DNA from: Octopus vulgaris
Lineage: Eukaryota
Direction of reading: 5' to 3'
Length of the DNA stretch: 64,000 nt
Assembly: GCA_951406725.2 (NCBI GenBank)
Contig: OX597831.1
Coordinates: 6,882,001 to 6,946,000 of the forward strand
The position numbers and the translations under genes were made by a program. Shown here one piece after another: positions 39,055 to 47,644 of this stretch (position 1 is the stretch's first letter; every line of letters starts with the position of its first letter). The notes under the pieces were generated by a model. The model saw nothing but the letters and a program-made list of their open reading frames with translations. It had not been told where the DNA came from and did not search any database.

Positions 39055-39543
39055 AGAGCGGCTAACTGGCTTCTGTGCCAGTGGCACTTAAAAGGCACCA
39101 TTTGAGCGTGATCGTTATCAGTGTCGCCTTACTGGCACTCGAGCCCCGTGCTAGTAAGGTATTAAGAGCACCATCTGAGCGTGATCATTGCCCGAGCGGC
39201 TATCTGACCTCTGTGCCGGTGGCACATAAAAGACACCATTCGAGCCTGATCGTTACCAGCATCACCTTACTGGCACCTGTGCCGGTGGCATGTGTAAAAG
39301 ATTCGAGCGAGGTCGGCGCCAGTACCGCCTGACTGGCCCCATGCCGGTGGCACGTAAAAGCACCCACTACACTCTCTGAGTGGTTGGCATTAGGAAGGGC
39401 ATCCAGCTGTAGAAACTCTGCCAGATCAAGATTGAAGCCTGGTGCAGCCATCTGGTTCTCCAGCCCTCAGTCATTCGTTCAACCCATGCTAGCATGGAAA
39501 GAGGACATTAAACAATGATGATGATGATGATGATGATGATGAT
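39055..39543 (+). mobile_element. RTE 3'-end element
   Basis: Family consensus, multiple modules, (GAT)n tail. Confidence 0.85.
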
Positions 39544-40312
39544 AAGCTGGTCTGAAACCTCACCTTTGTGCAATTGTAATTTCACTGCTTCTTACCCTGC
39601 CGTTATAAAGTACTTTGATAAGATATTGATATACAAAGCCAAAGTTTCCTCACCTGATGATATAGACAGAAATTATATTGATTGCAGACCAAATTCATTT
39701 AAAAAGCCCCGGTTTCAGAAACACCACATTATTGGCTAAATATATCTGGAATTTTAAAGACAGAAAAACAAAACAGAACAAAAAAACTGATAATATTATT
39801 ACAATAAACTAGTCAGCTATTAAAAATGCAAACCCTACTTCATCATTGGCAATACCAGTCAAATCTACTTAGCAGAGAAATTTGATATTTTCATAGAGCT
39901 ACATATTATTAAATAAAAAGTCTGAACTGGTTTCAAACTGCTGACATGAAGGTTGTTATTTCTCAGGAGAATTTTTTATTATATCTCTAACTCATGCTTA
40001 ATTTTTTTTATTTAATGCCATCCACTTCTCTGTTTTTAGATGAACTCTATTCTGTGAAGTGCATGGTCTATATATATTGATCATCAATGAAAAAAAAAAC
40101 AAACACATTTTACAGAAACAGTTTATATAAATATTTTACAAAATATATTTTGTAAGGCTGCTGCAAAGCATCTGTAATACTATCATAATAAAGTTTATAT
40201 TTGCTTTTTCATTGTAGTAAAGATTGTTTGCCAACATAACATGGCAGTCCTGGTTTAGGATAAATGTTGCTGTAATTTAGCCCCAGGAGACATCGTCTCC
40301 AGCTGGCTATAC

Positions 40313-40631
40313 GACATGATCTGTGTCCTTATATTTTGAAACAAGGGAATCTAGCACCCCAACTCAGCTCAAAACAACACCTGTGTATTGCAATTTCCGG
40401 GTTATTTCCCTTCATCAGCACAGAATAATCGTTCGGCTAGAGGTGCGGCTGCCAAATTCCCATTTGAAATATATAGTTTTCAAAGTGACAACTAATCACT
40501 GATCTATAAATTAGAAAACTACTATTTTTAAATCTCACAACATGAGATATTCAGCAACAGTACTTTGTGGTAAAGATTGAGTGAGGGTGCTAGATTCCCT
40601 TGTTTGAAAATATAAGGACACAGATCATGTC
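40313..40631. mobile_element. Inverted-repeat cassette enclosing the hammerhead (Penelope pseudo-LTR-like)
   Basis: 47-bp arms at 40313-40359 and 40585-40631 with one mismatch. Confidence 0.65.
40381..40423 (-). ncRNA. Minimal type-I hammerhead ribozyme
   Basis: Minus strand: CUGUG-CUGAUGA-A-GGG-AAAUAA-CCC-G-GAAA-UUGCAA-UA-CACAG. Five-bp stem I, palindromic stem III (AUUGCAAU). Confidence 0.8.
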
Positions 40632-40869
40632 CTTATATTCTTCTATTATGTATATTTTTTATTATTATTATATATATTCTCTATTTTATATCCAACGAAT
40701 AAAGAAAGATAAGTTGAAATGTCACCTTCCAGAATGTGTATATATATACATTTCAGTTACATGCACTCCATTTATCTCATATAAGCATTGTAAGGCATCT
40801 AAAAACCACCTGGGTACATAAATTGCTATGACATTTGGGTACCTCACAATTTAATCAGAAAATTTTTAA

Positions 40870-41495
40870 TGGACTGCATTTCCATCCACAACTCTCAGTT
40901 CAAATGTAACTAAAACAACCCATTTTGGGGAAGAATAATCACAGGTGAGGAAGACTGGATTGTTTACAACAATGTGGAGCAAAAAAAGATCTTGGTAAAA
41001 TGAAATGAGTCACTGTTAACCATTCCAAAAGCTGGTCTGCATCCAAAGAAAATGATGTTATGTACAAGGTGGGATAGGAAAGGCATTGTGAATTGTGAGA
41101 ATCCTTTCATGAAACATTGTTTATTACCGGACTGACTGAAGGCAGATGAAAAGTGTTTTTCGAATTGGCCCATTGAAAGAGTGTCATCTTCCTTCAAGAT
41201 AATGTCAGACCTCAAATCTGTTTACAGATATGGCAGAAATTAGTGCAGTGTTGTTGGGATGTTCAACCTCAGCCACCAAACTCACCTCATTTTGCTCCTT
41301 CAGATTATAACTTATTTCAATCCTACAAAGTCCTCTTAATGAGAAGTAATTCAATTCATCGTGTGTCTGTAAAAACTACTTAGACCAGTTCATCGCTCAG
41401 AAAGATGCCAAGTCCTCAAATGATGCACTCATGAAACTGCCCCAAAGATGGAAAATGGTAGTGGCACAAAATGGCACACATTTAGTTGGCTAAAT
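40870..41495 (+). mobile_element. Mariner transposase relic of a second family
   Basis: KAGLHPKKMMLCTRWDRKGIV, FLQDNVRP, PPNSPHFAPSDYNLFQSL and KLPQRWKMVVAQNG, frameshifted. Confidence 0.85.
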
Positions 41496-41724: not shown

Positions 41725-41760
<36 letters not shown>

Positions 41761-42003
41761 GTTTAATGTCCATTTTCCATACTAGCATGGGTTGGATGGT
41801 TCGACCGGGATCTGGGAAGCCAGGAGGCTGCACCGGGCTCCAATCTTGATCTGGCAGTGTTTCTACAGCTGGATACCCTTCCTAACACCAACCACTCCGT
41901 GAGTATAGTGGGTGCTTTTTACGTGCCACCGGCACAGGTGCCTGGGGAGGCTGGCAACAGCCAGCCACAATCGGTTGGTGCTTTTTACGTGCCACTGGCA
42001 CAG
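41658..42003 (-). mobile_element. RTE 3'-end element with expanded (CAT)n tail of about 100 bp
   Basis: Family consensus; the tail explains the poly-His ORF. Confidence 0.85.
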
Positions 42004-45190: not shown

Positions 45191-45562
45191 TTATATATAT
45201 ATATATAGGCACATGTACATGGGTGTGCGGGTGTGCATGTGTAGGTATGGACATGCACGCTTACGCACTTACTATGAACATTTTTACTCCCTTGCCTCAC
45301 TTAGCGGTCATTCTAATAGCTCTTTTGTCTTAATAATAGTCAATCATACAGCAATTTTCCTTTGTTATAACGGTCATTTTCATAGCATTTTTTTCAATGG
45401 CCCGATAGCTGAAGAGATGCTGGCATGGGTTTCAACCCCAACATCCGAAACTCAGAGTTTTATCATGGCTACTGAATAATTGTCACATATTATATTTACA
45501 GATATATATATATATATATATATATATACGTATATACATACATACATATGTATGTATGTATA

Positions 45563-46489: not shown

Positions 46490-47322
46490 ATAATAATAAT
46501 AATAATAATAATTGTGTACAGTGCTCAGGTGCACTACAACTCATCTAAAGTGTATATATAATCAGGTGTAGTTTCGGCGGATTTCGGAAAGCATGAGGGC
46601 CTTAAAAGATGCAGTGTCATGGCAGTCAACAACTGACGCAGGCAGTTTATTCCATGCTTCAGCAACTCTGAGCGTGAAAAAATGTTTCCGAAAGTCATGG
46701 GAGCTGTATTGTTTTCTGACTTTGTAGGCATGTCCACGTGTGTTAGACACATGGAGATCAAAAAGGTGTTCAGTGTTGTTGTTGGTGAGGTGGTTGATAA
46801 CTTTGTGGGTGTTTACCAAGTCCGTCGCCAGATGCCGGAGCTTCAGTGAATCCATGCCCAGGGAAACAAGGCGCTCAGAATATGGTAGGTGTCTGATGGA
46901 GGGTATGCGTTTGGTTGCACGTCTCTGGACAGATTCCAGGAGGTCAATGTTCTGTGCAAGATAGGGGTTCCAAACTGATGATGCGAATTCCAAGTGTGGT
47001 CGTACCATAGCTGTATACAGTTTTAAATAGATGGCTGGAGAGCGGCTAACAAAAGACCTGCTGAGTGATGCCAAGACACCCTCGGCCTTCCTGACAATCT
47101 TAGAGATATGCTTTGACCAACGCAAATCACTGCTGACAGTGATGCCTAGGTCACGCTCGCAAGAGGATTTCTTGATATCAGTGTTGTGGAGGGAGTAAGT
47201 GAACGCAGGGTTTTTTCTCCCAAAATGCATGGTGGTACACTTGTCCACAGCCAGTTTCAGTTGCCAGTCTGTGATCCATTGCTGCATTGTGTCTAGGTCT
47301 GATTGCAGGAAAGAGTTATCAT
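46490..47322 (-). mobile_element. 5'-truncated CR1-type LINE with open C-terminal RT frame
   Basis: LQSDLD..WQLKLAVDKC..ERDLGI..VRPHLEFASSVWNPY..LESVQRRATK..TRGH..FFTLRVAEAWNKLP, stop at 46562-46564, short 3'UTR and (ATT)n tail. Confidence 0.93.
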
Positions 47323-47644
47323 CCTCATCATTAACCATTTTCGTCTGTTTTTCCATGCTGGGTTAGGCTACAGCACCTCAGATTTTTGCTGTCTCTTCTC
47401 ATCTGTTATACACCGCAACAGAAAAAAAGCACCACTCCTTGCTGTTGTGTATATTATGCGTTTGGCATGGTTTTTATGAGCAGATGGTCTTCCTATTACC
47501 AGTCAGTTTACCATACAGAATGAGAGCATTTTATCATGTAACCAACCCTAGAGAAGTCCCCTGTAGCAGGACTACAGATTCCTCTCTACCCTACAACTAC
47601 TTTAATTCAGATATACTCTTTTCAAGATTGGCTGCCTCTGCTGT

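Follow-up and report, generated by a model that had tools for sequence, protein, structure and literature searches.

The element at positions 40212–40639 of the window (the whole stretch of Octopus vulgaris DNA that was analyzed, 64,000 nucleotides) is, with a probability of about 85%, a decayed copy of an abundant 353-bp repeat that bears a hammerhead, likely inserted in trans by a Penelope-like element (PLE). The family is a dispersed non-coding repeat with hundreds to thousands of copies; it matches metazoan non-LTR retrozymes in those features that could be tested and, judged from its sequence, appears to be a new family of this known kind, with cleavage predicted. The inverted repeat at the locus is the leftover stub of a second arm, and the locus is therefore an ordinary one.

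Coordinates within the repeat (u) run in the ribozyme sense, with u1 at 40579 and u368 at 40212; the locus consists of u1–368 (minus strand) and u214–267 (plus strand), which overlap by 2 nt where they meet. The preliminary description had noted that GTAAAGATTG recurs near 40217 and 40570, and both occurrences lie within a 15-nt direct repeat (40212–40226 and 40565–40579, spacing 353); the decamer recurs because the long arm (40212–40579, minus strand) is one monomer plus 15 nt. The first copy of this redundancy (minus strand) is the fixed, short and tail-less 3′ end of the family (S), with loose RNA and DNA ends at 40212/40213, and the second (minus strand) starts the next monomer register, where reads and contigs jump back by 353. 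Also on the minus strand of the long arm are an internal copy of the 54-nt “tail” u16–69 (40511–40564, with loose ends at 40511), a type I hammerhead (40380–40424) assigned by descriptor scan and sister-family alignment, and, from fold prediction, an extended helix I (40365–40439) that encloses the hammerhead and includes an internal loop and closing stems. The end of the tail segment is the second fixed terminus of the family (T), and a hairpin (u18–60) is predicted in its majority sequence.

The 47-bp inverted arms described previously are present as the outer part of 54-nt arms (40313–40366 and 40578–40631; 94% complementary, spacer 211 nt), but family alignment identifies the left arm as an internal monomer segment (u214–267, minus strand) with no terminus and the right arm as a short head-to-head second copy of it (plus strand), with the 2-nt overlap at the inner junction. 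The “cassette” boundary placed at 40313 has to be moved to 40212, as family homology extends 101 bp beyond the left arm. At the other end, eight more bases (40632–40639, plus strand) fold back onto 40609–40616 to give a 12-bp hairpin (40609–40639), likely a snap-back repair scar; the post hoc chance of such complementarity is about 7e-5 to 5e-4. No ORF of at least 100 aa overlaps the element at 40212–40639. Two copies of a different abundant repeat, which has (ATG)n tracts, lie in opposite orientation on either side of the region (39356–39543 and 41731–41919) and are unlinked to the element.

A search of the whole genome (2.8 Gb) returned 3022 first-look candidates, of which 40 were scored; among these, the best matches span 40212–40579 at 90–93% and some are in tandem with about 352-bp spacing. 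An exact 31-nt ribozyme pattern gave 274 matches and an exact 31-nt 3′-end pattern 905, with 0 for the controls. Family matches are thus found genome-wide, and the label “solo” is not supported. The monomer has a period of 353 bp and a GC content of 0.39–0.41, and occurs as dimers or trimers at two of the loci (L010, with three units in tandem, and L017). Its predicted circular fold has a z score of −5.1 for the window copy and −7.8 for the majority sequence (40 shuffles).

Mapping of 80 loci (the 20 best BLAST matches, the first 30 ribozyme-pattern places, and the first 30 3′-end-pattern places) left, after removal of nine duplicates, 71 loci including 40212–40639, of which 56 are head-to-head two-armed and 15 one-armed. 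In 44 of the 71, an inverted 5′-truncated copy is combined with a tail at one end: the end of one arm lies close to u368/u15 (S) and that of the other close to u69 (T), S and T being two fixed 3′ ends 54 nt apart. A target duplication (score at least 8) accompanies 29 of these 44 S+T loci, compared with 1.3% of shuffled flank pairs; the duplications are roughly 8–14 bp, lengths that are approximate because four element letters were admitted. The inner junctions of two-armed loci are scattered, about half of them with a 1–6 nt overlap. The S+T layout, the target duplications, and the many copies bear out the earlier proposal that a non-autonomous, hammerhead-carrying element was inserted in the manner of a PLE. 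Three arms (at L003, L007, and L012) stop at u227–229, perhaps marking a third, minor start site.

The window copy is one of six “S plus other” loci among the 71: it retains the S end, but the second arm reaches only u267, leaving 155 nt to T. There is no target duplication (score 0), and no displaced remainder of the short arm was found elsewhere in the 64-kb window. We infer a break that snap-back synthesis repaired; alternatively, the truncated second arm may stem from an insertion that aborted. In contigs of organisms B, D, and E, the left flank continues 27–28 nt into the element, and contigs of D and E, aligned from 40594 and 40606 onwards, cross the right junction with about 1–2% of letters different; the right contig of organism B aligns from 40628 only, and organism C gave no informative long piece. 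As the D and E contigs carry the truncated junction, the truncated state is shared and old. There is no empty site among the joints listed for related organisms, and no contig bridges the locus. A joint 40249→40559, considered as a different allele, was rejected as foreign to the locus since the flank contig ends at 40238. At 22 of 368 positions (about 6%) the window copy departs from the family majority; across 36 long copies the median divergence is 5.55%, and 28% of CpG sites are changed. Arms differ by 9.35% within a locus and by 9.92% between loci (57 loci), which implies that most change occurred post-insertion. The window copy is probably an inert fossil.

The link to PLEs is by footprint and not by sequence, since no DNA is shared with the PLEs searched. 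GIY-YIG matches in the genome comprised 6136 candidates, of which 150 were scored, and 781-aa ORFs with RT and GIY-YIG domains exist. The 30 GIY-YIG loci taken from the 150 scored show no DNA homology with the unit (best E 0.10); 15 longer PLE stretches share no DNA with the unit, the only relative being a copy of the sister family described below, and a tblastn partner search gave no PLE link. Two of the 80 family loci have PLE protein matches, at distances of 468 and 815 bp and neither contiguous with the element; a further 29 loci, a set that partly overlaps the 80, have none. Neither a contiguous RT plus GIY-YIG ORF nor pseudo-LTR (pLTR) DNA homology was found in this limited PLE sample, and the extension of copies to an autonomous PLE ORF, envisaged in the preliminary description, failed in the loci examined.

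It could be argued that the repeat is itself the pLTR of an autonomous PLE, and that the loci are short 5′-truncated insertions of that PLE instead of a separately propagating retrozyme. The footprint of two arms, tail, and duplication indeed matches that of autonomous PLEs, a PLE in the same genome combines an ORF with an inverted arm and a hammerhead, and the partner search covered the 30 of 150 GIY-YIG matches and the 15 stretches given above. However, arms exceeding one unit continue into another monomer copy and never into an ORF at the loci examined, and no contiguous PLE protein match is present in the 80 plus 29 loci, which makes a pLTR unlikely. The ORF-bearing PLE (L119:1321–4483, G000:C14) has a 574-aa RT and GIY-YIG frame, a 766-bp inverted arm that is 100% identical, and a hammerhead with a CCGAAGA core and a GTAC palindrome. 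A further PLE family (L111, G000:C16:20835500–20842500, and others) has many 781-aa open frames, is likely young, and carries short internal repeats in its 3′ region. Within the window, a 266-aa frame at 46562–47362 (minus strand) has a weak RVT_1 match (E 2e-4).

Family transcripts were surveyed in three RNA runs, about 6% of each and unstranded, which yielded 1956, 1675, and 1521 family reads at a likeness of at least 86%; only 5, 8, and 8 reads, respectively, are at least 99% alike. No transcription of the window copy was detectable in these three runs, and no indexed RNA run is listed as containing the sequence of the locus. Between 71% and 78% of family reads continue into unlike sequence, and coverage, highest towards the 3′ end, is reduced several-fold over the ribozyme. 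Read ends do not accumulate at the predicted cut site (between 40386 and 40385), although fragmented, unstranded libraries could mask such a pile. These features together fit truncated copies within host transcripts. Joints that jump back by 353 occur in RNA reads but are no proof of circles, because tail-bearing copies and DNA contigs share them. At 40415, about 30–45% of family RNA reads alter a base of the hammerhead core, probably reflecting one diverged expressed copy.

The descriptor scan identified in the hammerhead (40380–40424) the core motifs CUGAUGA and GAAA, a palindromic UUGCAA, an AUA triplet, and a helix I of 6 bp with G-U counted; helix II is GGG/CCC with a 6-nt loop and an A.G mismatch at its base. 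A minus-strand hammerhead had been correctly recognized in the preliminary description, but its size is canonical, and the term “minimal 43-nt” understates a motif with a 6-bp helix I, an internal loop, and closing stems. The bare core pattern has 11 matches against 4.4 expected and alone is weak evidence; the relaxed form of the descriptor averages 0.05 matches in Markov-simulated windows. Of 25 aligned ribozyme copies (L002–L020), 22 have an intact core, and at loci not chosen by the ribozyme pattern the conservation of the core is borderline and not significant (4/299 against 335/10327, p = 0.065). The loop 3 palindrome is TCGCGA in the majority and TTGCAA in the window copy, a double CpG decay that leaves it palindromic but makes the predicted dimer helix weaker (−10.1 kcal/mol for the majority, −6.5 kcal/mol for the window copy). 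At 10.1–11.1, where hammerheads have a conserved G-C pair according to PMC4209133, A is found in 60/60 copies with G (44) or A (16) as its partner, about half of the 60 rows having been picked by a pattern that fixes those letters; the paired 10.1–11.1 (usually G-C) that would be expected under the core was not found. RNA editing was considered for the three A>G changes in helix I of the window copy and rejected, as family A>G and T>C changes number 94 and 92 (p = 0.88). A second hammerhead-like motif (45404–45464, plus strand) belongs to another family, and like motifs occur in L123.

A sister family, discovered beside the PLE of L119 (L119:5105–5315) and present at further loci (L126–L137), comprises 2588 candidates and aligns along the monomer with about 60–65% likeness by eye; its period is 356 in one locus, and several of its copies adjoin (TA)n. 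Its hammerhead has an identical core, compensatory changes in five of the six helix I pairs, and a different loop 3 palindrome, CTCGAG; at 10.1–11.1, C.A occurs in six copies, T.A in three, and C.G in one (ten copies). The compensatory helix I and the new palindrome support a selected ribozyme in the lineage, and at the level of the lineage the hammerhead is a real, predicted motif. These observations bear on the possibility that the hammerhead match arose by chance or was never active, the repeat being a SINE-like PLE parasite without a ribozyme. Such a reading would account for the negative Rfam results (no family at the gathering score in the window; no match of the hammerhead models at E ≤ 10 in 39800–41200), for the A.G mismatch at the base of helix II, for a monomer helix III whose formation is not predicted, and for the lack of RNA ends at the cut site, and in the account of 10.64898/2026.07.22.740005 only one of nine predicted frog retrozyme dimers was cleaved. 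Against this, the strict descriptor matched in 0 of 100 Markov-simulated windows and the sister family retains the core with a compensated helix I and a different palindrome, such that the absence of a ribozyme is, in our view, very unlikely.

The preliminary description also placed the ribozyme in the loop of a long hairpin. In the predicted fold of a minus-strand transcript of 40300–40645, both arms do pair in a long stem (z −11.8), but the predicted pairing of helix I drops from 0.92 to 0.39 in the context of the full-insertion transcript, implying that the hairpin would not aid cleavage, and the scattered inner junctions of two-armed loci imply that the position of the ribozyme in a hairpin loop is an accident of the insertion at 40212–40639. 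That the 47/54-bp arms are the terminal inverted repeats of a mobile (MITE/TIR-type) cassette, or a functional hairpin with the ribozyme in its loop, is extremely improbable despite their complementarity and in silico stem, given that family homology continues past the left arm, that no other of the 71 loci has such ends, that there is no duplication, that helix I is poorly paired in the hairpin, and that RNA depth is 0 for the left flank and no more than about 5 for the right one, with few reads at least 99% alike.

The reading as a decayed, trans-inserted retrozyme-like copy suggests the following course. A PLE RT/GIY-YIG protein would nick both strands of AT-rich DNA about 8–14 nt apart, and each of the 3′ ends would prime cDNA synthesis on a multimeric or circular RNA, at a pair of fixed internal sites; head-to-head joining of the 5′-truncated cDNAs via a few bases of microhomology would follow. 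At 40212–40639, the tail-bearing arm may later have lost its outer part or may have aborted during insertion, and snap-back healing would have left a 54-bp inverted stub with no duplication. In the active ancestor, the ribozyme likely cut multimeric transcripts to monomers, mainly as a dimer or aided by protein.

Several parts of this scheme have published counterparts. The inverted-copy-plus-tail layout is reported for PLE insertions (PMC8557442; PMC3846280), and a purified PLE protein is described as cutting and extending both strands and as initiating at two positions inside the RNA that delimit the tail, with a hammerhead that cut only with protein and was dispensable for insertion (PMC11167929). 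The family resembles EN+ PLE insertions, as those three accounts present them, in the inverted 5′-truncated copy at the 5′ end, the tail on one arm, duplications of about 8–14 bp, AT-rich targets, and two fixed termini. It is unlike them in having no ORF, a tail of 54 nt as opposed to the published 30–40 bp, and no matching autonomous element found; the window copy, in addition, has lost its tail end. Metazoan non-LTR retrozymes, as described in PMC7229834 and 10.64898/2026.07.22.740005, share with the family a non-coding monomer of about 350 bp (350–390 bp in mussel), a GC content of about 40%, a type I hammerhead with a weak palindromic helix III, dispersed monomers to multimers, target duplications of over 4 bp, and co-resident PLEs. 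In contrast to those retrozymes, as far as these accounts go, the family consists mostly of short two-armed inverted insertions and not long arrays, is old (5–6% decayed), has A.G at the base of helix II, and has cleavage and circular RNA only as putative features. The helix II mismatch recalls the U.U of the axolotl HHR_Amex2 in the retrozyme literature.

The palindromic loop 3, which suits dimers, and, in one possible register, an additional purine following position 9 are shared with the minimal PLE hammerheads described in PMC4209133. The family motif differs from that description in its 6-bp helix I with internal loop and closing stems, in a 3-bp helix II with a mismatch that is nearer canonical type I geometry, and in an extra G before GAAA in the minimal-type register. 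In PMC6962438, the hammerheads of a squid are only counted. No cephalopod retrozyme family was found in the titles and abstract openings screened; supplementary consensus tables might hold the family.

It is conceivable, though on present evidence doubtful, that the family and its sister form a retrozyme lineage in which a non-Watson-Crick helix II pair (A.G in one, mostly C.A in the other) acts as a brake that would be released only by dimers or by PLE protein, and in which a PLE dimer would write the copies by priming on both strands of the target, from a pair of fixed sites that lie 54 nt from each other in a single RNA circle. The window copy is a fossil, and the finding has little import for the locus itself. 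The mobilization of retrozymes in trans by PLEs has been proposed from co-occurrence and pLTR phylogeny in the papers cited above. To this the family adds a genomic case of a protein-free hammerhead repeat with the full Penelope signature of inverted arm, one-sided tail, and duplication, and the presence of that signature on a protein-free repeat supports mobilization in trans.
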